64,000 nt of DNA from a virus (IMGVR_UViG_3300025678_000001), one strand, 5' to 3'. Shown: positions 28,803 to 55,530, counted from the first letter of the stretch. The notes: a model not told the origin generated them from the letters alone. Numbers and translations: made by a program.

Positions 28803-28972
28803 AGTCTTAGGTTTTTAGCTGTAAGGGGACGGGTCGAACGTCCACGCAGAGATTCAGTATTGGAACGGCATATACGCTTGCAAGCATTAGTGGTCAACCC
28901 TTACCGTATACCTATTTCTTTATCTGCACCCACGAGACGAGTGGGCGTGTCTGCCAGTTTCACCACCTTACA

Positions 28973-32844: not shown

Positions 32845-33118
32845 CTGACTCTACCCCATGGTAGGCCAGAAACTTATGTTCAAACTCTTCAAACGGAGTG
32901 TCAATGATCAGATGGTCGTCGTTCTTCATGAACAATGTGGTACATCCGCATGTCATCTCACCCTCATCATCTGAGGTAAGCTTAATACTTCTTACATCTT
33001 CCAAGAGAAACACAAAGTCCAGCCATTTACCTTTGTCGGTAATGTTCATGTCCTCAGCTTCTTTTGGATCCATGGAGTAGCAATGAAGCCTACACTTATG
33101 AAGCTTTAGAGTTTTCAT
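32825..33118 (-). CDS. hypothetical protein
   Basis: 97-aa ORF. Confidence 0.45.
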   Translation of the reverse strand: MKTLKLHKCRLHCYSMDPKEAEDMNITDKGKWLDFVFLLEDVRSIKLTSDDEGEMTCGCTTLFMKNDDHLIIDTPFEEFEHKFLAYHGVESDDSPNF

Positions 33119-33333
33119 TAGAGTACGGATTTGTTTTTCTTAGAAACATGGTACTGGTTATACCGCATATACTTGCTCTGGTTGGAGGCCTTGAGGATCT
33201 GGGTTGCCAGGGCACGTTCGGCTTCACCATCCCGGACATCTACTACGGGAACGTAGATCTTCTGTCCGTACTTATTTACAGTCTCTCTGAAATAGGATAA
33301 CTGGGTTTGATCGTCTAATGATTGGTTTTCCAT
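33118..33333 (-). CDS. hypothetical protein (first gene of the minus-strand operon)
   Basis: 71-aa ORF; the TTCTACAA-N7-TTGTAGAA dyad lies just upstream. Confidence 0.4.
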   Translation of the reverse strand: MENQSLDDQTQLSYFRETVNKYGQKIYVPVVDVRDGEAERALATQILKASNQSKYMRYNQYHVSKKNKSVL

Positions 33334-33381
33334 AGTGTAATAAGTTAAGGTTACAGTATAATATACTTAATAAGTTTAAAC

Positions 33382-33404
33382 TCTACAAATTTATCTTGTA
33401 GAAC
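33382..33404. promoter_or_regulatory. dyad operator TCTACAA-N7-TTGTAGA(AC) upstream of the structural operon and downstream of hxlR
   Basis: same half-sites and 7-nt spacer as the 6782 dyad. Confidence 0.45.
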
Positions 33405-33533
33405 TTATAAAAAGTACACAAACTTATACACTATGTGTGGATATGTAAGCGTTGAGGAAGTACAAAGAAAGCCGGTTACTTGGAGAGATGCAAGTACCCG
33501 GGCCCTAAATATCTTAGAGAGGTTAGGTGGTAA

Positions 33534-33920
33534 CTAGGCAGAAAGCTGTTCCTTTTCTAATAAGACAATGATGTCTTCTGGGAGATTGTGCTTCTTATGA
33601 TGCTTGTAGAAATAGTTCACCAGGGCTTTGTGGTAGACCTCCTGGGCATGCGTGAGAGGTTTGGTATCCTCATGAAGTTCATAGGTAACTTTTACCGGTA
33701 TGGTCTGGTACTGCTTTCGTACAACCAGCTCATATTCTTCCAGATCTTTTAAGGTCTCACTGAGGACTTTGACAGATATATCCGGGAGCTTGCGTTTGAG
33801 TTCAGAGAATCTCATGGGGCCCTGGCGTAGGTGCCAGATAACTACTGCTCTCCACTTTTTGCCCCACATCTCGGAGGCTAGGTTCATCAGGTAAGCTGCT
33901 AACATATGATTACAACACAA
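33534..33920 (-). CDS. HxlR-family winged-helix transcriptional regulator
   Basis: WGKKWRAVVIWHLRQGPMRFSELKRKLPDISVKVLSETLKDLEEYELVVRKQYQTIPVKVTYELHE matches the HxlR/DUF24 signature (WxxxILxxLxxGPxRFxEL...IxxKxLxxxLKxLExxGLVxR...P..VEYxLT). Confidence 0.8.
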   Translation of the reverse strand: MCCNHMLAAYLMNLASEMWGKKWRAVVIWHLRQGPMRFSELKRKLPDISVKVLSETLKDLEEYELVVRKQYQTIPVKVTYELHEDTKPLTHAQEVYHKALVNYFYKHHKKHNLPEDIIVLLEKEQLSA

Positions 33921-34048
33921 TAAACAAAACTCAGCAGTAGTAGTTGTCTTTAGAGTGGACTATTTCTCACTGAGGTAAGTAGATTACTAAGGGGTAATAC
34001 TTAGTAAAATTAATCAGTGTCAGCTTATATACAACTGATTCTTATCAG

Positions 34049-34120
34049 TTTCCTCCCCTGGGTACGATCCAGGAACTGCAGGGCCAAAACCTGCCGTGAT
34101 ACCAGTTTCACCAAAAGGAA
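34049..34120 (-). tRNA. tRNA-Gln(UUG)
   Basis: T-arm CCTGG/ATCGTAC/CCAGG, anticodon arm GCAGG-UUUUGGC-CCUGC, acceptor pairs with two GU. Confidence 0.6.
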
Positions 34121-34126
34121 ATAGTG

Positions 34127-34198
34127 GGTGTAAGGACGGTACCGACCCGTCTTCCCCAGGTCCACAACCTGGTGCATCACCTTAATGCTTCAAACACC
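34127..34198 (-). tRNA. tRNA-His(GUG)-like, encoded G-1/C73, two U-U mismatches in the acceptor stem
   Basis: anticodon arm CCAGG-UUGUGGA-CCUGG; T-arm GACGG/GTCGGTA/CCGTC; extra 5-prime G opposite C73. Confidence 0.45.
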
Positions 34199-34203
34199 AT
34201 AAG

Positions 34204-34275
34204 AGCCTTCTACCGGAACCGACCCGGTAAGTCCTGTTTACAAGACAGGCAGTTTTCCAGTTAGCTTAAGAAGGC
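34204..34275 (-). tRNA. tRNA-Thr(UGU)
   Basis: perfect 7-bp acceptor (GCCTTCT/AGAAGGC), T-arm ACCGG/GTCGGTT/CCGGT, anticodon loop CTTGTAA. Confidence 0.65.
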
Positions 34276-34280
34276 CTGTG

Positions 34281-34353
34281 TGGTACAGAGTGGTTACGAT
34301 CCACTTCCCCCGGTTTTTCAGACCGGTGCTTCTACCAAGTTAGCTTCTGCACC
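34281..34353 (-). tRNA. tRNA-Phe(GAA)
   Basis: T-arm AGTGG/ATCGTAA/CCACT, anticodon arm CCGGT-CTGAAAA-ACCGG, acceptor with one GU. Confidence 0.65.
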
Positions 34354-34428
34354 AAGTAGGACTTTGTCAAAGCCGGCCACTCCTGCACAAAGAGGAGACC
34401 AGCTTGATCAGGTGTCCTGAAACCTTTG

Positions 34429-34501
34429 AGGTGGGTGGGAAACTCGAAGCCCCGTATGACTGTTTTGCGGACAGTTGCCTTACCATCTTGGCGAACCCAC
34501 C
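34429..34501 (-). tRNA. tRNA-Cys(GCA)-like (C33, weak T-stem)
   Basis: acceptor GGTGGGT/ACCCACC, D-arm GCC-AAGATGGTAA-GGC, anticodon loop CCGCAAA, T-loop TTCGAGT. Confidence 0.4.
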
Positions 34502-34507
34502 ATGTTG

Positions 34508-34579
34508 TCTAGCTGATCTGGATCGAACAGACGTAATCTTGCTCCCAAAGCAAGTGCCTTACCGCTAGGCTACAGCTAG
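34508..34579 (-). tRNA. tRNA-Pro(UGG)
   Basis: acceptor CTAGCTG/CAGCTAG, D-arm GCC-TAGCGGTAA-GGC, anticodon arm CTTGC-TTTGGGA-GCAAG, T-loop TTCGATC. Confidence 0.7.
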
Positions 34580-34617
34580 AAAAAGAAAACCCCCAAACCG
34601 TTTTACCAGTCTGGGGG
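34578..34617 (-). terminator. rho-independent terminator (minus strand)
   Basis: CCCCCA...TGGGGG hairpin followed on the minus strand by TTTTCTTTTTCT. Confidence 0.5.
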
Positions 34618-34757
34618 TTAGTATTTTGATTTTGTACTTCTTAACTCGTTGCTATGATCACTGTACATACACCAACACAACTACCCCCGCAGACCGGACA
34701 AGGTTGCGTAAACTGGGTAAACTGTGTATGGGTAGTAATCTTCTTCATCTACAATAC

Positions 34758-34789
34758 AAAGATACTACTTTTTGTAGAACTACCAAAAT
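34758..34789 (-). promoter_or_regulatory. minus-strand promoter (-33 TTTTG, N19, -7 TATCTTTG) overlapping the TTGTAGAAC box
   Basis: reverse complement of caaagata (34758-65) and caaaa (34785-89); ~130 nt upstream of the 34578-34617 terminator. Confidence 0.45.
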
Positions 34790-34797
34790 CTTTTTGC

Positions 34798-34870
34798 ACG
34801 GGCCCAGGGAAACGATCCCTGTCCATCCGAGGTTTTGGAGACCTGGTGCATACCATTATGCTGGCCCATG
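34798..34870 (-). tRNA. tRNA-Trp(CCA)-like
   Basis: T-arm CAGGG/ATCGTTT/CCCTG; anticodon loop CTCCAAA with a 27-43 mismatch; acceptor with GU. Confidence 0.45.
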
Positions 34871-34875
34871 TATGT

Positions 34876-34959
34876 GGGAAGTGAGTGAGTCGAACACCCC
34901 GAGTCCGTAGACAGCTGGTTTACAATCAGCCCCGCTACCACTTACGGTATAACTTCCCC
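34876..34959 (-). tRNA. tRNA-Tyr(GUA), class II (long variable arm)
   Basis: acceptor GGGAAGT/ACTTCCC, anticodon loop TTGTAAA, T-arm GGGTG/TTCGACT/CACTC, 84 nt. Confidence 0.55.
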
Positions 34960-35040
34960 TATTTCGCATATCCAGTCAGTAGTCTTTCCGTCAAAAGCTA
35001 TCAACCAGAGTATGCCGTTCATATTAACGATGTACATGCA

Positions 35041-35123
35041 GAGAGCAGAGTAGTCGAAACCCACCCCGGTTAAGGAGCCCACTGTTTAGCAAACAGGTCT
35101 GACCACCTAGTCAGTTTACTCTC
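35041..35123 (-). tRNA. tRNA-Ser(GCU)-like, class II, T-arm poorly formed
   Basis: anticodon arm CCTGT-TTGCTAA-ACAGT, D-arm CTGAC-TAGGTG-GTCAG, acceptor GAGAGTA/TGCTCTC. Confidence 0.4.
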
Positions 35124-35129
35124 TAGATG

Positions 35130-35221
35130 CGGAAGGCAGAGGAACCGACCCCCATGCCCGTGTAAGGGGCAGCCTAGTTTTCAAGACTAGTCGCCACTCC
35201 AATGTAGCTGCATTACCTTCC
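35130..35221 (-). tRNA. tRNA-Ser(UGA), class II
   Basis: acceptor GGAAGGT/GCCTTCC, anticodon arm CTAGT-CTTGAAA-ACTAG, variable-arm hairpin, T-loop GTCGGTT. Confidence 0.6.
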
Positions 35222-35226
35222 ATGTA

Positions 35227-35313
35227 GTACCGGTGGAGGGGGATGATCCCACACGATCCTTTCGGATCACAAGATTTTAAGTCTTGCGTGTCTGCCTATT
35301 TCACCACACCGGC
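35227..35313 (-). tRNA. tRNA-Leu(UAA), class II
   Basis: anticodon arm CAAGA-CTTAAAA-TCTTG, variable-arm hairpin GATCC-GAAA-GGATC, acceptor GCCGGTG/CACCGGT. Confidence 0.55.
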
Positions 35314-35394
35314 AGTTGTCTGGACTCTCACCATAGCAGTCAGGGATTTCAGGTCCCCAGGTGTGCATTCAATTCGTCCCACCTTCTGACATCG

Positions 35395-35477
35395 TACCTC
35401 TGACAGGCCTCGAACCTGCACCCGTTTCCGGACTAGATCCTAAGTCTAGCGTGTCTCCCAAGTTTCACCACAGAGGT
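35395..35477 (-). tRNA. tRNA-Leu(UAG), class II
   Basis: perfect acceptor ACCTCTG/CAGAGGT, T-arm GCAGG/TTCGAGG/CCTGT, anticodon arm CTAGA-CTTAGGA-TCTAG. Confidence 0.65.
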
Positions 35478-35518
35478 ATAAAAACCAAAATCCCGACCAG
35501 GAAAACCTAATCGGGATT
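35478..35518 (-). terminator. rho-independent terminator (minus strand)
   Basis: 8-bp stem AATCCCGA/TCGGGATT followed on the minus strand by TTTGGTTTTTAT. Confidence 0.5.
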
Positions 35519-35673
35519 GGAAACTTTTTCAGTAACTACATACCTCACCCGATTGGTTTATGCAACCAATACAGACTGAGTGAGGATAGAGTAAACTGCT
35601 TCATAAAAATTTGGTGGATGGTCACCCCACTTGTTTTAATCTAAACAAGAAATCATCGGTCGGTTACGTTAAC

Positions 35674-35735
35674 TTCTCAGCTTGAACGCCTGTCGTGTGA
35701 CCTTTCAGCTTTCACGCCTGTTAAGAGGCTTTACC
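35674..35735. repeat. imperfect direct repeat CAGCTT(G/T)(A/C)ACGCCTGT x2, spaced 29 nt
   Basis: cagcttgaacgcctgt and cagctttcacgcctgt inside the short promoter-to-terminator unit. Confidence 0.35.
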
Positions 35736-35748
35736 GACCATCACAATA

Positions 35749-35780
35749 CAAATATACAACTCTTTTGGAGTTCTACAAAA
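35749..35780 (-). promoter_or_regulatory. minus-strand promoter (-33 TTTTG in TTTTGTAGAAC, N19, -7 TATATTTG)
   Basis: reverse complement of caaatata (35749-56) and caaaa (35776-80); transcribes a ~230-nt ORF-free segment ending at the 35478-35518 terminator. Confidence 0.45.
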
Positions 35781-35788
35781 TATTTTTG

Positions 35789-35864
35789 TGGAGACTCTGG
35801 AACTTGAATCCAGCTGATATCCTGCTTGCAAGGCAGGTGTCCACTCCTGGCAGACCCAGTCCCC
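35789..35864 (-). tRNA. tRNA-Ala(UGC)
   Basis: T-arm CTGGA/TTCAAGT/TCCAG, anticodon arm CCTGC-CTTGCAA-GCAGG. Confidence 0.6.
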
Positions 35865-35870
35865 ATGCTG

Positions 35871-35942
35871 TACTCTCGGGTGGTAACGATCCACCTACCT
35901 TCTCCGTATCAGGGAGCTACTCTACCATTGAGCTACGAGAGT
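35871..35942 (-). tRNA. tRNA-Ile(GAU)
   Basis: perfect acceptor ACTCTCG/CGAGAGT, T-arm GGTGG/ATCGTTA/CCACC, anticodon loop CTGATAC. Confidence 0.65.
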
Positions 35943-35947
35943 ATAAG

Positions 35948-36020
35948 TTGATCCGGGTGGGTACGATCCACCGACCTTGACGTTATGAGCGTCCTGCTAC
36001 TACCACTGAGCTACGGATCA
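35948..36020 (-). tRNA. tRNA-Met(CAU)
   Basis: perfect acceptor TGATCCG/CGGATCA, T-arm GGTGG/ATCGTAC/CCACC, anticodon loop CTCATAA. Confidence 0.6.
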
Positions 36021-36025
36021 GTATG

Positions 36026-36099
36026 CGGTCCGTACCGGGATCAAACCGGTCATCTCTGGCGTGACAAGCCAGCGTCTTCATCGTGCAGACCCACGGACC
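36026..36099 (-). tRNA. tRNA-Asp(GUC)
   Basis: perfect acceptor GGTCCGT/ACGGACC, T-arm ACCGG/TTTGATC/CCGGT, anticodon arm CTGGC-TTGTCAC-GCCAG. Confidence 0.7.
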
Positions 36100-36105
36100 A
36101 AATAG

Positions 36106-36180
36106 TACCCCCACCGGAGATCGAATCCGGTTCTTCACCGTGAAAGGGTGGCGTCCTGTACCTTCTAGACGATAGGGGCA
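36106..36180 (-). tRNA. tRNA-Glu(UUC)
   Basis: the sequence GCCCCTATCGTCTAGAAGGTACAGGACGCCACCCTTTCACGGTG...TTCGATC... closely parallels canonical bacterial tRNA-Glu. Confidence 0.65.
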
Positions 36181-36259
36181 AATTGGAGGCTTAGGACTCC
36201 ATCATCCTCCTTGAGATCCCGGCGTCCTTCTACTTTTTATAGTACGGATCTCTTTTACG

Positions 36260-36331
36260 AGCAGCATCTCGGGGTCGATCCGAGTTCTCCGGTTTGGAAG
36301 ACCGGCACATCAGCCCTAATGCTTATGCTGC
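36260..36331 (-). tRNA. tRNA-Gly(UCC)
   Basis: perfect acceptor GCAGCAT/ATGCTGC, T-arm CTCGG/ATCGACC/CCGAG, anticodon arm CCGGT-CTTCCAA-ACCGG. Confidence 0.7.
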
Positions 36332-36445
36332 ATGAAAGAACAGAGCTCCAGGGGAATCTCACCCGTCTGTCCGGAACAGACCTCACTGCCTTTTACTATG
36401 TACGGTATTTACTCGTACACAACAGCTACCTGAAGATGATCTTGG

Positions 36446-36515
36446 TTGCGGGGCCGGGATTTGAACCCGGGAAACACGGCTTATGAGACCGGTCGGCCAC
36501 CTGGCTCCCCACAAT
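36446..36515 (-). tRNA. tRNA-like gene, anticodon arm unresolved
   Basis: canonical T-arm CCGGG/TTCAAAT/CCCGG and acceptor pairing TGTGGGG/CCCCGCA, but the interior is 2 nt short of a standard cloverleaf. Confidence 0.3.
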
Positions 36516-36522
36516 AAAACTG

Positions 36523-36595
36523 CGGACTCTCCGGGGAACGATCCTGGAACCTTCACCTTAACAGGGTGCCGCTCTACCAGTTGAGCTAAGAGTCC
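36523..36595 (-). tRNA. tRNA-Asn(GUU)
   Basis: perfect acceptor GGACTCT/AGAGTCC, D-arm AGCTCAACTGGTAGAGCG, anticodon loop CTGTTAA, T-loop ATCGTTC. Confidence 0.7.
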
Positions 36596-36596
36596 G

Positions 36597-36668
36597 TATA
36601 CTTAGAAGGATTCCAACCTTCACTTTCAGTTTAGAAGACTGACGTGCTAAGCATTACACCATAAGTAC
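36597..36668 (-). tRNA. tRNA-Arg(UCU)
   Basis: T-arm GAAGG/TTGGAAT/CCTTC, anticodon arm TCAGT-CTTCTAA-ACTGA. Confidence 0.65.
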
Positions 36669-36676
36669 ATATCTGG

Positions 36677-36747
36677 AAGACCCGGAGGTAGTCGAAACCC
36701 CATCATCACGTTCGTAGCGTGATATCCTTCCATTGAACGACGGGTCC
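36677..36747 (-). tRNA. tRNA-Arg(ACG)
   Basis: acceptor GGACCCG/CGGGTCT, T-arm GGGGT/TTCGACT/ACCTC, anticodon arm TCACG-CTACGAA-CGTGA. Confidence 0.65.
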
Positions 36748-36802
36748 TTGTTAAGACCGTCTTCGGTAATATGTACTGTAGTGTGTCATGTCTTCTGTCT
36801 GG

Positions 36803-36876
36803 TAGCTCCTATCCGGGTCGAACGGATGCATTCTCGGTATGTAACACCGAAGCTCTACCACCTGAGCTAAGGAGCT
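36803..36876 (-). tRNA. tRNA-Val(UAC)
   Basis: perfect acceptor AGCTCCT/AGGAGCT, D-arm TAGCTCAGGTGGTAGAGCT, T-arm ATCCG/TTCGACC/CGGAT, anticodon loop GTTACAT. Confidence 0.7.
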
Positions 36877-36882
36877 ATTTGA

Positions 36883-36932
36883 AGCTCATTATTGAGCTTG
36901 AATGAGCTGAATATTGAGCTTAATCGGCTCAT
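36883..36932. promoter_or_regulatory. palindromic operator AGCTCA-N4-TGAGCT plus three phased TGAGCT half-sites
   Basis: AGCTCATTATTGAGCT at 36883-98; TGAGCT again at 36903, 36915; GGCTCA at 36927; lies between tRNA-Val and tRNA-Lys. Confidence 0.4.
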
Positions 36933-36940
36933 ATATCTTG

Positions 36941-37012
36941 TTCCCCCGTCCGGTAACGATCCGGACCCCACGGATTAAAAGTCCGTTGCCTACACCTGTT
37001 TGCTACGAGGGA
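36941..37012 (-). tRNA. tRNA-Lys(UUU)
   Basis: T-arm TCCGG/ATCGTTA/CCGGA, anticodon arm ACGGA-CTTTTAA-TCCGT, acceptor with one GU. Confidence 0.65.
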
Positions 37013-37050
37013 AAATAAAAAACCCCGGTAGCTGGTGCTCCGGGGTTCTT
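37011..37050. terminator. bidirectional hairpin terminator (strong T-tract on the minus strand)
   Basis: CCCCGG-N11-CCGGGG hairpin flanked by AAAATAAAAAA on one side and TTCTTGTTATCTT on the other. Confidence 0.5.
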
Positions 37051-37194
37051 GTTATCTTAAACTTACTTCTAGTTATCCTAGATCAGTACAGACAAATGAA
37101 CCCACGGAGCGTACCTTCTCATCCGCTCTGCGTTCCATAATGCCTATATTGACTGTAAGTAACATTTGCTGTGTAATAGTTTTATGTAGATCTC

Positions 37195-37235
37195 TGACCT
37201 ACAATACAAATATACGTTAGTTCTACAACATGACC
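37195..37235 (-). promoter_or_regulatory. conserved CTACAATACAAATATAC / GTTCTACAA box (candidate minus-strand promoter at the head of the tRNA array)
   Basis: -7-like TATATTTG on the minus strand (reverse complement of 37207-14) adjacent to GTTCTACAA. Confidence 0.4.
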
Positions 37236-37239
37236 AAAT

Positions 37240-37563
37240 TTATTTCATCGTTTTTCCTGAGAAAAGTTTGTCGAGTTCTCGTACAGCAATGTTGTACGCT
37301 ATCTGTTGAGCTTTCATTTGATCTGTCATTGAGTTATCCAGATCTGGTTTCAGTTCCTCTTCGTTTATAGGATCTATACCTACAATATAAGGTGGAGCTT
37401 CAGACTTATTCCGGATAGTCTTCTTTACCTGCTTACGACGGTTATAGTGTTTCCGAGGAAGTGGAATCTTCCAACTCCACTCATCTTGTAACCCGATCAC
37501 TATGCTCTTCTTACCTTTCCCAGGTCCGTCAAACGCCGGGTTGTGTTCTACTTCTATCTTCAT
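37240..37563 (-). CDS. hypothetical protein
   Basis: 107-aa ORF. Confidence 0.45.
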   Translation of the reverse strand: MKIEVEHNPAFDGPGKGKKSIVIGLQDEWSWKIPLPRKHYNRRKQVKKTIRNKSEAPPYIVGIDPINEEELKPDLDNSMTDQMKAQQIAYNIAVRELDKLFSGKTMK

Positions 37564-37738
37564 GCTTCCTCATTTTTCTGCGGGTACGTTTTTTATCTTT
37601 GATTATAGTCTTTGCCGGGCCCCACATCAGATAGGTTTCAACTGCTCTTTTCCATGCTTGTTCTCTTTCCTGTTCTTCCTCAGTCATCAAGCGTATAGCA
37701 CCGGATCTGTCTTTAAGCATGAGTACCTTGTTACTCAT
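37529..37738 (-). CDS. hypothetical small basic protein
   Basis: 69-aa ORF. Confidence 0.3.
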   Translation of the reverse strand: MSNKVLMLKDRSGAIRLMTEEEQEREQAWKRAVETYLMWGPAKTIIKDKKRTRRKMRKHEDRSRTQPGV

Positions 37739-37932
37739 TTCTGACCCTTTTTGGTATTGGAGCCCGGGTAAGCCTCGTTGAGTACTATCATCTTCTTAAG
37801 CTCATCTCTGTGTACCCACTGTACCTTACCCACCGCGGCATAGTACTTCCAGGCCATCTCATCCTGGGGGAGATCACCATTCTTATACAGCTCGACCACA
37901 CAAGCCAGGTCTGTATAGACTACTTCACTCAT
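37735..37932 (-). CDS. hypothetical small protein
   Basis: 65-aa ORF in a tightly packed array. Confidence 0.35.
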   Translation of the reverse strand: MSEVVYTDLACVVELYKNGDLPQDEMAWKYYAAVGKVQWVHRDELKKMIVLNEAYPGSNTKKGQK

Positions 37933-38326
37933 TGGGATTAAGTTTTAAAAGTCGATCCGGATCAAATCCCCTGGTGGCAAATGCCTTGAACGTCTCAGCG
38001 TACTTGGGGGTCTCAGTTCTCTGAGGCATACCGTAGGTCTCCCCAGCCTGTACACAGAGAGCTGCTATCTTTCGTAGAAACTCCATGGTATACTGGTGTG
38101 GTACCGATCCCTTATACCATGCCTCTAATGCTTTGTTCAGGTTATACTGAATTGCAGTGATGGTATCTCCAACATGCAGGTCCTGGATCATATCCGGCCT
38201 GGTCGGGTCAGCTATCATCTTTTCCTGGAAGTCACGCTCGGTGTCAATCACCTTATAGACTTCTTCTCTGGTCATAACGGTCGGTTTTTGGTAGACCGGT
38301 TCAAGATCCTGATAGGTTGTATTCAT
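37925..38326 (-). CDS. hypothetical protein
   Basis: 133-aa ORF, last minus-strand gene before the divergent control region. Confidence 0.5.
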   Translation of the reverse strand: MNTTYQDLEPVYQKPTVMTREEVYKVIDTERDFQEKMIADPTRPDMIQDLHVGDTITAIQYNLNKALEAWYKGSVPHQYTMEFLRKIAALCVQAGETYGMPQRTETPKYAETFKAFATRGFDPDRLLKLNPNE

Positions 38327-38458
38327 AACTAAGCTGTTTTAAAAGTGAGGGGGCTTTTACACCCCCTTGGGCTAAGGCAGGTCTGTCAAGTTTCATGAGT
38401 TCTCTACAAATATAAGAAACCAGACTCCAGTTCTCCAAATATTTCTACAAGTTTCCTT

Positions 38459-38529
38459 GAGCTCATTTTTGAGCCCTAGAACATAGTAATAAGGAATACA
38501 TGGTATGTTATAGAGCTCAGATTTGAGCT
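38459..38529. promoter_or_regulatory. two palindromic operators AGCTCA-N4-TGAGC(C/T) in the divergent intergenic region
   Basis: AGCTCATTTTTGAGCC at 38459-74 and AGCTCAGATTTGAGCT at 38514-29. Confidence 0.4.
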
Positions 38530-46453: not shown

Positions 46454-46524
46454 TTTGTTTACACTTTGTAGAACTAAGAAAAACGTCTACATTTGTTCTA
46501 CATCTTTAAAGTTTACATGTTACA
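46454..46524 (+). promoter_or_regulatory. iteron-like cluster of GTT(C)TACA repeats with a TTGTAGAAC box upstream of the wHTH gene
   Basis: GTTTACA, TTGTAGAAC, GTCTACA, GTTCTACA, GTTTACA, GTTACA within 70 bp. Confidence 0.35.
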
Positions 46525-55498: not shown

Positions 55499-55530
55499 TT
55501 TGTAGAACTCCTAAAAAAGTTCTATATTTG
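55499..55530 (+). promoter_or_regulatory. Bacteroidetes-type promoter (-33 TTTG within TTTGTAGAAC, N20, -7 TATATTTG) driving the tmRNA-like gene
   Basis: TTTG at 55499-55502, TATATTTG at 55523-55530, RNA 5-prime GGGCCCG at 55540. Confidence 0.5.

Follow-up and report, generated by a model that had tools for sequence, protein, structure and literature searches.

Organization of the tRNA array

The 64,000-nucleotide viral stretch analysed here (IMGVR_UViG_3300025678_000001, hereafter the window) carries on its minus strand an array of tRNA genes arranged in three blocks, which jointly serve all 20 amino acids. Each block is preceded by a unit composed of a predicted promoter, a short ATG ORF, a spacer of 21-26 nt and a predicted intrinsic terminator, directly followed by the first tRNA (Table 1). 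The same architecture is found three times each in L205 and L229, two other crAss-like phages, and once each in L214 and L208; as the total of 11 units comes from only five related uncultured phages, the units are not independent.

Table 1. Coordinates of the features of the three units and of the tRNA blocks that follow them in the window
Unit	Feature	Coordinates	Strand	Description
1	Promoter P1	37207..37238	-	Predicted; Bacteroidota sigma-A type (TTTG, 20 nt, TATATTTG); pattern enriched over shuffles
1	Leader ORF 1	37073..37165	-	30 codons; MLLTVNIGIMERRADEKVRSVGSFVCTDLG, then stop
1	Regulatory run 1	37109..37153	-	15 codons, V N I G I M E R R A D E K V R (VNIGIMERRADEKVR)
1	Segment 2	37098..37111	-	CGCUCCGUGGGUUC; predicted to pair with segment 1 (37135-37124) or with the terminator 5' arm (37047-37037; antiterminator)
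1	Terminator T1	37013..37050	-	Predicted; hairpin 37050-37018, T-run to 37013, abuts tRNA-Lys
1	tRNA block 1	35788..37012	-	12 tRNAs: Lys-UUU, Val-UAC, Arg-ACG, Arg-UCU, Asn-GUU, CAU (36513-36443), Gly-UCC, Glu-UUC, Asp-GUC, CAU (36020-35947), Ile-GAU, Ala-UGC
2	Promoter P2	35749..35779	-	Predicted; motif scan
2	5' UTR	35605..35742	-	Direct repeat 35721-35705 and 35693-35677; small hairpin and U-run 35630-35605
2	Leader ORF 2	35545..35604	-	19 codons; MKQFTLSSLSLYWLHKPIG, then stop
2	Regulatory run 2	35563..35589	-	LSSLSLYWL
2	Segment 2	35547..35557	-	ACCAAUCGGGU; predicted to pair with segment 1 (35577-35565, run codons) or with the terminator 5' arm (35518-35506)
2	Terminator T2	35478..35520	-	Predicted; hairpin 35518-35489 by scan, abuts tRNA-Leu
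2	tRNA block 2	34796..35477	-	6 tRNAs: Leu-UAG, Leu-UAA, Ser-UGA (35221-35128), Ser-GCU (35124-35038), Tyr-GUA (34959-34875), Trp-CCA
3	Promoter P3	34757..34787	-	Predicted; motif scan
3	Leader ORF 3	34641..34748	-	35 codons; MKKITTHTQFTQFTQPCPVCGGSCVGVCTVIIATS, then stop
3	Regulatory run 3	34695..34736	-	TTHTQFTQFTQPCP
3	Segment 2	34684..34697	-	CCGGUCUGCGGGGG; predicted to pair with the terminator 5' arm (34619-34607)
3	Terminator T3	34580..34619	-	Predicted; hairpin 34619-34588 by scan, abuts tRNA-Pro
3	tRNA block 3	34048..34579	-	6 tRNAs: Pro-UGG, Cys-GCA, Phe-GAA, Thr-UGU, His-GUG, Gln-UUG

Two genes of block 1 have a CAU anticodon: the first is listed as Met/CAU and the second is probably an AUA-reading Ile2, its positional equivalent in L229 being Ile-UAU. 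The Tyr-GUA gene of block 2 is assigned by homology, a Tyr tRNA being called in L205 and L229.

The Bacteroidota sigma-A consensus is composed of a -33 TTTG and a -7 TAnnTTTG motif, and both are present, at a spacing of 19-21 nt, in the predicted promoters. Those of the array follow the pattern TTTG-N19-20-TAnnTTTG, six sites of which are found in the window vs 0.85 expected, a number reached in none of 100 shuffles, and GTAT(A/C)TTTGTATTGT is exactly common to all three; the extended form of the promoter occurs in at least 119 IMG/VR stretches. The three consensus minus-strand promoters proposed by a first-pass annotation of this DNA are thus confirmed at the level of motif enrichment. P1 is kept in L205 and L229. 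At P3, the ATG of the leader lies 9 nt past the -7 box, so that the mRNA is predicted to be essentially leaderless, and the layout is the same in L214 and L208.

The strong minus-strand intrinsic terminators of the same annotation are also recovered, 138-231 nt from their promoters and between the leader ORF and the tRNAs. Their predicted hairpins (-21 to -23 kcal/mol) are followed by T-runs that stop 1 nt short of tRNA-Lys (37012), tRNA-Leu (35477) and tRNA-Pro (34579); the T1 hairpin, at -21.1 kcal/mol by folding, was missed by the terminator scan because of its one bulge. Scans with sigma-70 and Bacteroidota motifs give no further site in the tRNA array and none between terminator and tRNA. 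As the T-run abuts the first tRNA and no promoter lies between them, the tRNA blocks depend on read-through. Terminators adjoining a tRNA block are also observed in the unrelated loci L158 and L159.

Conserved leader ORFs and their match to the downstream tRNAs

The transcribed segments had initially been described as devoid of any ORF. This does not hold, as each of them contains one short ATG ORF, located 3-139 nt from the predicted transcription start and conserved in relatives. The homologs of leader ORF 1, MRTLVNIGIMAERRADREIKRSVVPMSMCDQS in L205 and MRTLVNIGMINDRRAVIREVKRSVGSCAYTDVM in L229, show 3-nt indels, and this ORF is called by a gene caller in L081/L082; those of leader ORF 2 are MRKFTTTSSLSLYWLYKPIG in L205 and MKQFISLSSLSYWLHKSIG in L229, and leader ORF 3 has homologs in L205, L229, L214 and L208. 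Across phages, the start codon and the core peptide are kept, whereas the 5' UTRs and the C-terminal tails are variable, and the indels in the conserved 5' part of the ORFs are multiples of 3. We infer that these ORFs are translated. In unit 2, the whole 5' UTR, including the direct repeat (ACAGGCGTNNAAGCTGA) that had rightly been noticed in this middle unit, is swapped for unrelated sequence in L205 and L229.

The composition of the leader peptides matches the set of tRNAs encoded downstream. Run VNIGIMERRADEKVR lies upstream of Lys Val Arg Arg Asn Met/CAU Gly Glu Asp CAU Ile Ala and is built from the 10 amino acids that block 1 serves, each of them being present and no other; LSSLSLYWL lies upstream of Leu Leu Ser Ser Tyr Trp, and TTHTQFTQFTQPCP upstream of Pro Cys Phe Thr His Gln. 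The longest runs of own-block residues are 15, 9 and 14 residues long and cover 10/10, 4/4 and 6/6 of the block amino acids, with chances, given the phage's own amino-acid composition, of ~1e-3, 2e-5 and <3e-8. When scored against the other two blocks, the runs do not exceed 4 residues. In seven other phage tRNA arrays, small ORFs upstream of ~60 blocks give own-block runs of at most 5 residues, and crAss001 has no leaders of this kind.

Own-block runs reach 17, 9 and 13 residues in L205, and 18 and 9 in units 1 and 2 of L229. In L214, the run TCTTTFFCFW lies upstream of Trp Cys Phe Thr; W is present in this leader and Q and P are absent, while the block has a tRNA-Trp and neither tRNA-Gln nor tRNA-Pro. 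An Ile tRNA with a CAU or UAU anticodon likewise corresponds to the AUA codon of the leader. Both cases suggest that leader and block change together. All in all, the composition match is found in 9 of the 11 units and is partial in L229 unit 3 and in L208, whose leaders keep T/Q/H (or T/F/P/H) codons although the block lacks the corresponding tRNA genes. The phage tRNA could read certain leader codons (GUC, GGC, UCC, CUC, ACC) only with expanded U34 wobble.

Alternative RNA pairings

In every unit, the best in-ORF partner of the terminator 5' arm is located directly 3' of the run. Pairing of this segment 2 with the arm would form an antiterminator incompatible with the terminator hairpin, with duplexes of -10 to -19.5 kcal/mol across units. 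The partner beats dinucleotide shuffles at P<=0.015 in 8 of the 11 units, the complementarity being marginal in the unit 2 copies of L205 and L229 (P ~0.08) and absent in L208 (P 0.30). In the window, the duplex reaches -18.6 kcal/mol in unit 1 (P<0.0005; 2000 shuffles) and -19.5 kcal/mol in unit 3 (P<0.0005), and P is 0.015 in unit 2. The sequence of segment 2 varies between phages but its complementarity to the arm is kept; in particular, covariation between segment 2 and the arm is seen for unit 3 in L205, L229 and L214.

When the ribosome footprint is masked during folding, the pairing between arm and segment 2 is predicted for A-site positions up to the end of the run and for none beyond it; in unit 2, the antiterminator is restricted to codons 6-13 in the A site (L S S L S L Y W). 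The competing 1:2 hairpin is clear in unit 2, where segment 1 consists of run codons, present in unit 1, and weak and spread out in unit 3. The unit 2 hairpin shows perfect nucleotide conservation, without synonymous changes, and the UGA stop codon (35547-35545) is at the 3' edge of segment 2, nt 35547 being common to both. In units 1 and 3, the ORF extends 8-13 codons past segment 2, and the 'ribosome at stop' state is for this reason not as sharply defined as in unit 2. Leader 1 has one Lys codon only, so near segment 2 that a ribosome stalled there would partly cover the segment.

All these features, read from the sequence itself, make it likely in our view that the three units are ribosome-mediated (leader-peptide) transcription attenuators, each for its following tRNA block. 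Attenuation of read-through into the tRNA blocks was one of three options of the first-pass annotation, and it is this option that the conserved ORFs, the composition match and the pairings favour; what had been missed is that the sensing element would be a translated leader peptide and not RNA alone.

Other explanations

The conservation of the ORFs could also mean that they encode micro-proteins with a function of their own, such as a Cys-rich zinc-binding peptide in unit 3, and are small genes placed between the tRNA blocks with their own promoter and terminator. Small genes are lodged among the tRNA blocks of the T5 and T4 tRNA regions, small ORFs occur in phage tRNA regions such as that of crAss001 (gp5-gp8), and leader 3 has a CPxC...C..C pattern. 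However, conservation is limited to the run and the RNA pairing segments, the C-terminal tails varying in length and frame, and a peptide function would account neither for the exact composition match in 9/11 units, nor for the in-ORF complement of the terminator arm, nor for a unit 2 hairpin free of synonymous changes. We thus hold this explanation to be improbable.

Promoters and terminators could alternatively be passive punctuation, the terminators closing the transcription units upstream and the promoters being strong but leaky, with the tRNAs resulting, without any sensing, from constitutive partial read-through or from a phage RNA polymerase that ignores the hairpins. It is true that strong terminators are seldom 100% efficient, that crAss-like phages encode their own RNA polymerases, and that terminators abut tRNA blocks in L158 and L159 too. 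But each terminator is placed downstream, not upstream, of its promoter, which is senseless for an insulator, and the conserved ORFs, the composition match and the antiterminator pairing would be left unexplained, so that we give this possibility little credit.

Finally, the units had been thought to be possible small RNAs. They are discrete promoter-to-terminator spans of ~170-265 nt, and they fold stabler than shuffles (z-scores of -3.5 to -4.8). An Rfam 15 covariance scan of positions 33000-38500 nevertheless returns, at E<0.1, tRNA-clan matches only and nothing credible in the three units, the sub-threshold matches (Plastid-ycf2, E=0.11; CRISPR-DR21, E=0.91) being far under gathering scores, and the three unit bodies, compared with each other, have no common sequence or structure. 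Three independent small non-coding RNA genes, trans-acting or stable like the species 1 and 2 RNAs of the T4 tRNA cluster, each from its own promoter to its own terminator, are very improbable, as what is conserved between phages is the ATG ORF with its in-frame indels and the pairing segments, and not the rest of the unit body (which in the 5' part of unit 2 has given way entirely to other sequence), as the correspondence between peptide composition and downstream tRNA set would have no explanation, and as the tRNA blocks would be left without promoter. The small RNA idea stands solely for terminated leader transcripts, which are expected at ~170-265 nt and would accumulate. The units are probably not small RNA genes but attenuators in the style of the trp operon.

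A model for attenuation of the tRNA blocks

In the attenuation model, host RNA polymerase would start at the strong Bacteroidota-type promoter and a ribosome would immediately translate the 19-35-codon leader, whose core would work as a 'codon sampler', a continuous run in which each amino acid of the downstream block has one to four codons. With fast decoding, the ribosome would cover segment 2 or reach the stop codon, the terminator hairpin would form, and the transcript would end one nucleotide short of the first tRNA. Scarcity of any cognate charged tRNA would stall the ribosome in the run, and the stall would open the segment 1:2 hairpin; the freed segment 2 could then pair with the terminator 5' arm as an antiterminator, letting the polymerase enter the tRNA block, from which RNase P would release the tRNAs. 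These new tRNAs would relieve the stall and exert a negative feedback on tRNA supply, so that a tRNA block would be made only when ribosomes run short of its tRNAs. This direction of regulation is a proposal, and the true signal might be either tRNA abundance or tRNA charging. We conclude, from the sequence features described above, that the units would sense the decoding of cognate codons and gate the matching tRNA block.

Comparison with known attenuators

The classical leader-peptide attenuators are trpL, hisL, leuL, pheL, thrL and ilvL/ivbL of Enterobacteria, some of which are multivalent, as those of thr (Thr and Ile) and ilvGMEDA (Ile, Val, Leu), and a leader-peptide attenuator with the pheM leader also controls the aminoacyl-tRNA synthetase genes pheST. 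The phage units resemble the classical attenuators by their promoter-proximal short ORF with regulatory codons, by the predicted alternative pairings 2:3 (antiterminator) and 3:4 (intrinsic terminator), with a 1:2 pairing that is clear in unit 2 but weak in unit 3, and, in unit 2, by a stop codon near or in segment 2. They differ from them in several respects: (i) their targets are 12, 6 and 6 tRNA genes, and not biosynthesis, transport or aminoacyl-tRNA synthetase genes, (ii) their leaders sample 4, 6 or 10 amino acids, mostly 1-3 times each and in most cases no more than twice per run, where the classical leaders have one to three amino acids in tandem repeats, (iii) they are three in series in one array, covering jointly all 20 amino acids, and (iv) they are phage-encoded, in a Bacteroidota context. 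By their predicted working, they would belong to the attenuator family, and their novelty would lie in a new target class, tRNA genes. The classical attenuators of amino-acid operons are treated elsewhere (PMC2965389; PMC3082878).

A leader-peptide attenuator also controls hisS (PMC2965389). In pheST and hisS, as in the phage units, leader-peptide attenuation bears on a translation component serving the sensed codon; the target is there a synthetase protein gene for one amino acid, whose product restores charging, whereas the phage units would restore the tRNA itself. T-box riboswitches likewise sense a specific tRNA state through a terminator/antiterminator switch upstream of translation-related genes, but they bind uncharged tRNA directly via a specifier codon, without ribosome or ORF, and the Rfam scan gives no T-box match in the phage units. 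Mycobacterial leaderless polycysteine short ORFs are attenuators that control downstream operon expression (bioRxiv 10.1101/834739). Unit 3 and the L214 and L208 units, being effectively leaderless, are similar to them in that the mRNA begins with the start codon (AUG) of a short regulatory ORF containing Cys; the mycobacterial ORFs, unlike the phage units, respond to a single amino acid and regulate protein genes related to cysteine. Finally, rnTrpL of Sinorhizobium meliloti is an attenuator-derived sRNA (PMC7968998), and the prematurely terminated phage leaders would also be discrete small RNAs, as the first-pass annotation expected, albeit without sign of a trans-acting role.

Our search found no published precedent for leader-peptide attenuation of tRNA blocks. 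If true, this would be the first leader-peptide attenuation of tRNA genes, and the first case of a leader that simultaneously polls as many as ten amino acids (12 tRNA species). It seems fairly likely to us that the array is a phage-encoded homeostat of tRNA supply, in which three serial leaders would poll decoding and open a block by antitermination only on failure. Such a homeostat could let the phage adapt to differing host tRNA pools or to tRNA-depleting defences.

The phage and its tRNA array

The portal, large terminase and major head proteins of the window match PHROGs annotated with these same three functions, families typical of crAss-like phages, and region 33001-38500 is identical to JGI metagenome contig 3300025597 Ga0208825_1000036 (133 kb) and also to a Logan contig. 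The array comprises 24 tRNA genes, identified by ARAGORN (17 at default settings), Rfam and homology, and all 20 amino acids are partitioned among its three blocks, of 12, 6 and 6 genes. Many of these tRNAs have an unusual T-loop, GGAUCGU(U/A)(A/C)CC, with A/U at positions 54/58 where T54/A58 is usual. Non-tRNA gaps of 63-111 nt lie inside the blocks; some may be decayed tRNAs, since the first one occupies the position of an extra tRNA-Lys(CUU) in the related phages L205 and L229. In L229, a 131-aa ORF is also inserted after tRNA-Val.

Coordinates of the features (positions in the window unless another sequence is named)
Feature	Position	Strand	Remark
tRNA array	37012 to 34048	minus	24 tRNAs
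Promoter P1	37238-37207	minus	TTTG-N19-20-TAnnTTTG match
Promoter P2	35779-35749	minus	TTTG-N19-20-TAnnTTTG match
Promoter P3	34787-34757	minus	TTTG-N19-20-TAnnTTTG match
Terminator, unit 1	37050-37018	minus	one bulge; -21 kcal/mol
Terminator, unit 2	35518-35489	minus	among strongest two minus-strand scan matches
Terminator, unit 3	34619-34588	minus	among strongest two minus-strand scan matches
5' UTR, unit 2	35605-35742	minus	138 nt
CAU tRNA	36513-36443	minus	added by Rfam and relaxed ARAGORN
tRNA-Glu	36179-36105	minus	added by Rfam and relaxed ARAGORN
tRNA-Ser-GCU	35124-35038	minus	added by Rfam and relaxed ARAGORN
tRNA-Cys	34501-34428	minus	added by Rfam and relaxed ARAGORN
tRNA-His	34197-34126	minus	added by Rfam and relaxed ARAGORN
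tRNA-Ser-UGA	35221-35128	minus	by eye and homology to tRNAs called in relatives
tRNA-Tyr-GUA	34959-34875	minus	by eye and homology to tRNAs called in relatives
tRNA-Lys	37012-36940	minus	example of unusual T-loop
Second CAU tRNA	36020-35947	minus	example of unusual T-loop; called Met
tRNA-Ile	35942-35870	minus	example of unusual T-loop
tRNA-Phe	34353-34280	minus	example of unusual T-loop
tRNA-Gln	34120-34048	minus	example of unusual T-loop
Intra-block gaps	36939-36877, 36442-36332, 36258-36180, 35393-35314, 35037-34960, 34427-34354
HxlR-like gene	33920-33534		directly downstream of array
Other promoters	46465-46495, 55499-55530	plus	Bacteroidota type
Other promoter	38439-38407	minus	Bacteroidota type
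tRNA-like element	28815-28970	minus	~155 nt
tRNA-like element, L010	9340-9498
tRNA-like element, L220	12330-12475
Conserved island	33351-33393	minus	43 nt
ORF and terminator, L158	8560-8800	reverse	jumbo phage
ORF and terminator, L159	5222-5450		jumbo phage

Each block is preceded by a promoter, a short ORF and an intrinsic terminator, together called a unit. The three minus-strand promoters of the first-pass annotation are present as sites, but they do not follow the sigma-70 consensus; they match instead the Bacteroidota motif TTTG-N19-20-TAnnTTTG, of which the window holds six sites against 0.85 expected, a number reached by none of the shuffles. The three array promoters have GTAT(A/C)TTTGTATTGT in common. 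The extended promoter pattern was rejected as diagnostic because it is generic in Bacteroidota phages (at least 119 matches). The other three promoters have TTTGTAGAACT at -33 in common, and two of them carry an inverted copy, GTTCTAC, at the transcription start; the GTAGAAC motif of these promoters recurs in P1-P3, which suggests a site for a common phage or host regulator.

The three strong terminators announced by the same annotation are borne out. In all three units the first tRNA of the next block begins one base after the end of the T-run, which leaves the blocks without a promoter of their own. The imperfect direct repeat of the middle unit is likewise found, as a tandem ACAGGCGTNNAAGCTGA in its 5' UTR, enclosed in a GGUCGGU...ACCGACC stem, with a small hairpin and a U-run directly 5' of the leader ATG; this 5' UTR is absent from L205 and L229, where unrelated sequence takes its place. 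The transcribed segments had, by contrast, been wrongly described as devoid of ORFs: each contains a short ATG ORF. When the three units are compared for a common RNA, alignment is limited to promoter and terminator, and none has a credible Rfam match.

Relatives carrying the units

More than 590 environmental IMG/VR contigs encode a related terminase, and in the best 80 (71-85% amino-acid identity) synteny is kept to ~33431, with no array at the equivalent site. By chance, a promoter-pattern scan returned fragment L199, on which the 3' half of unit 2 has a homolog, and the full array of that phage, L205, was recovered from a metagenome collection with a tRNA-Gly pattern. Three more phages were reached via the HxlR-like gene: L214 and L208, each with a single unit, and L229, a 127.6-kb ENA contig (via a protein collection) with a full three-unit array. 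The units are found in these five related phages only. Among cultured phages, blastn with the array returns isolated tRNA matches only, and tblastn with leaders 1 and 3 finds no match in INPHARED; the 107-aa and 65-aa proteins flanking the array have no homologs in the protein collection. Exact-pattern scans (unit 2 hairpin, tRNA-Ile, tRNA-Gly, L214-type leader) return the same contigs only, and none match in GTDB genomes.

An array with such units is absent from nine further HxlR-gene neighbourhoods, several of which have a tmRNA and a few tRNAs. ARAGORN finds a tmRNA gene, with tags ending in ...AA, in related crAss-like contigs L206, L231, L233, L234, L236 and L239. In the last four it lies just downstream of the HxlR-like gene and the tags share GEELSEM...; a few tRNAs follow it in these four and in L231, and in L206 it lies far upstream with no tRNAs nearby. 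In crAss001, the array is driven directly by a promoter without leader or terminator.

Leader peptides match the tRNAs of the block that follows

Promoters, short ORF, the segment just after it and terminator are all kept between the window and L205. Indels within the ORF cores are multiples of three, and the C-terminal tails vary in length and frame. L229 behaves likewise in all of this.

Leader peptides and predicted in-ORF antiterminators (P from 2000 dinucleotide shuffles of the ORF; L214 and L208 have a unit 3-type leader only)
Unit	Phage	Leader peptide	Antiterminator
1	window	MLLTVNIGIMERRADEKVRSVGSFVCTDLG	-18.6 kcal/mol, P<0.0005
1	L205	MRTLVNIGIMAERRADREIKRSVVPMSMCDQS	P=0.0015
1	L229	MRTLVNIGMINDRRAVIREVKRSVGSCAYTDVM	P=0.0005
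2	window	MKQFTLSSLSLYWLHKPIG	-12.1 kcal/mol, P=0.015
2	L205	MRKFTTTSSLSLYWLYKPIG	P=0.085
2	L229	MKQFISLSSLSYWLHKSIG	P=0.079
3	window	MKKITTHTQFTQFTQPCPVCGGSCVGVCTVIIATS	-19.5 kcal/mol, P<0.0005
3	L205	MKKFQHTQFTQFPTCPECEGSVCLCPKD	P=0.002
3	L229	MKKFTQHTQFTQFPTCPECEGSVCLCTRE	P=0.004
3 type	L214	MRHTCTTTFFCFWHRSAGEGVS	P=0.006
3 type	L208	MKHTSTTCPIFTCWCPAGGCMCCTE	P=0.30

The conserved core of each window leader contains only amino acids served by the tRNAs of the following block, and all of them. Scored against the other two blocks, the same leaders give runs (unbroken stretches of served amino acids) of at most 4 residues, and small ORFs upstream of ~60 tRNA blocks in seven unrelated phage arrays, taken as a control, give own-block runs of at most 5.

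Longest runs of the window leaders against their own blocks
Block	Amino acids served	Run (residues)	Share of phage proteins drawn from set	Chance
1	K V R N M G E D I A	VNIGIMERRADEKVR (15)	56%	~1e-3
2	L S Y W	LSSLSLYWL (9)	21%	~2e-5
3	P C F T H Q	TTHTQFTQFTQPCP (14)	23%	<3e-8

The correspondence extends to codons in leader 1, where adjacent CGC and AGA match Arg tRNAs ACG and UCU, and AUA, AUU and AUG match a CAU tRNA, Ile-GAU and Met-CAU. In L229, Ile-UAU occupies the position of the second CAU tRNA of the window, which suggests that the window copy reads AUA; with the AUA codon of leader 1, this predicts that it is an Ile2 (lysidine) species. Three points speak against the model at this level: most amino acids have only one or two codons per run, the sole Lys codon of leader 1 is near segment 2 (the in-ORF stretch predicted to pair with the terminator), and some leader codons need expanded U34 wobble. 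Codon choice in the leaders is also constrained by RNA pairing, and no special relation to long-ORF codon usage was found in the window phage.

The composition match recurs in all three units of L205 and in units 1 and 2 of L229. In L214, the run TCTTTFFCFW precedes a Trp Cys Phe Thr block; its leader contains W but neither Q nor P, just as its block includes tRNA-Trp but neither tRNA-Gln nor tRNA-Pro. As read from these sequences, leader and block change together. Two of the 11 units match in part: the unit 3 leader of L229 retains T, Q and H codons before a block of Pro, Cys and Phe only, and that of L208 retains T, F, P and H codons before Trp and Cys only. Both look like the result of a recent loss of distal tRNA genes.

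A predicted antiterminator within the ORFs

In every unit, the best in-ORF partner of the terminator 5' arm lies directly 3' of the run. The pairs vary in sequence between phages while retaining complementarity, as in the unit 3 family (CUGCGGGGG:CCCCCAG, UGCGAGGG:CCCUCA and AGCCGGGG:CCCCGGC). When the nascent RNA is folded with the ribosome footprint masked, segment 2 is open to pairing with the terminator arm only as long as the A site has not passed the run, and this partner is lost once the ribosome advances. In unit 2, the antiterminator interval coincides exactly with codons 6-13 (L S S L S L Y W). The run codons of this unit pair with segment 2 as the 5' strand of a hairpin, the UGA stop lies at the 3' edge of segment 2, and with the ribosome at the stop codon the terminator is the sole remaining option. 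The folding models thereby follow the 1:2 / 2:3 / 3:4 logic of the trp attenuator, most clearly in unit 2.

Two unrelated jumbo phages, L158 and L159, have a conserved ~52-aa ORF (MKTL.LHTI...) whose 3' part (GUUAAGGG or GUUAGGG) is complementary to the 5' arm of a terminator, both co-varying, and this terminator adjoins a tRNA-Asn-led block. It is possibly an analogous attenuator, left out of the count because its peptide-to-tRNA composition match is not significant.

Other elements of the window

A conserved tRNA-like element, also found in sequences L010 and L220, precedes a small ORF upstream of the terminase gene. Its acceptor stem is normal, its D arm is class-II-like and a T arm is present, with 50-72 extra nt in place of the anticodon arm; the anticodons assigned by ARAGORN in intron mode are inconsistent (Gly, His, Phe), and no Rfam family matches. 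Directly after the terminator that follows the HxlR-like gene, a short island has 88-92% identity across many relatives against ~66% in its flanks. Its sequence corresponds to a promoter (TTTGTAGAG, 20 nt, TATATTAT) with the arms of the inverted repeat GTTCTAC...GTAGAG on either side, and it is probably a conserved promoter and operator.

Probable leader-peptide attenuation of tRNA genes

We read the units as most likely being leader-peptide attenuators, each gating its tRNA block by the decoding speed of the block's own codons, and we consider with good confidence that the mechanism belongs to the class of ribosome-mediated attenuation. Slow decoding of these codons would open the tRNA block, providing feedback control of tRNA supply. 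Besides the codon-level points above, the restriction of the units to five related phages and the two partial matches among the 11 units weaken this reading. Promoters and terminators could alternatively be passive punctuation of the array, or the ORFs could be unrelated micro-protein genes; each is improbable to a similar degree, as neither accounts for the composition match or the in-ORF antiterminator. Least probable are independent small-RNA genes, which do not account for these two observations either; small RNAs were one option of the first-pass annotation, attenuators of read-through another, and the former stands only insofar as terminated leaders would appear as short RNAs, with predicted ends at 37013, 35478 and 34580.

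Known ribosome-mediated attenuators target biosynthetic and aminoacyl-tRNA synthetase (aaRS) genes, whereas the targets here would be tRNA genes. In the full-text literature searched, leader peptides are described only before biosynthetic and aaRS genes, and no account of tRNA genes attenuated in this way was found, although coverage is incomplete and this is absence of evidence only. As far as can be told, four aspects would be new: tRNA genes as the target of attenuation, one leader polling 4-10 amino acids, three attenuators in series covering all 20 amino acids, and a phage and Bacteroidota setting for leader-peptide attenuation.

Why phages carry large tRNA arrays and how these are controlled is still debated, the proposed reasons including that the tRNAs compensate for codon usage, replace a degraded host tRNA pool or allow escape from anticodon nucleases. 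Annotators are warned that ORFs of 20-35 codons within tRNA arrays may be regulatory. The correspondence between peptide and tRNAs can be rewired, which offers a simple test of the model, and the design could become a compact synthetic sensor of tRNA availability. If the model is true, trp-type attenuation would be extended to RNA genes, to the polling of many amino acids by one leader and to crAss-like phages of Bacteroidota, and a sensor of slow decoding for each block would provide direct evidence of arrays responding to a shortage in tRNA supply.
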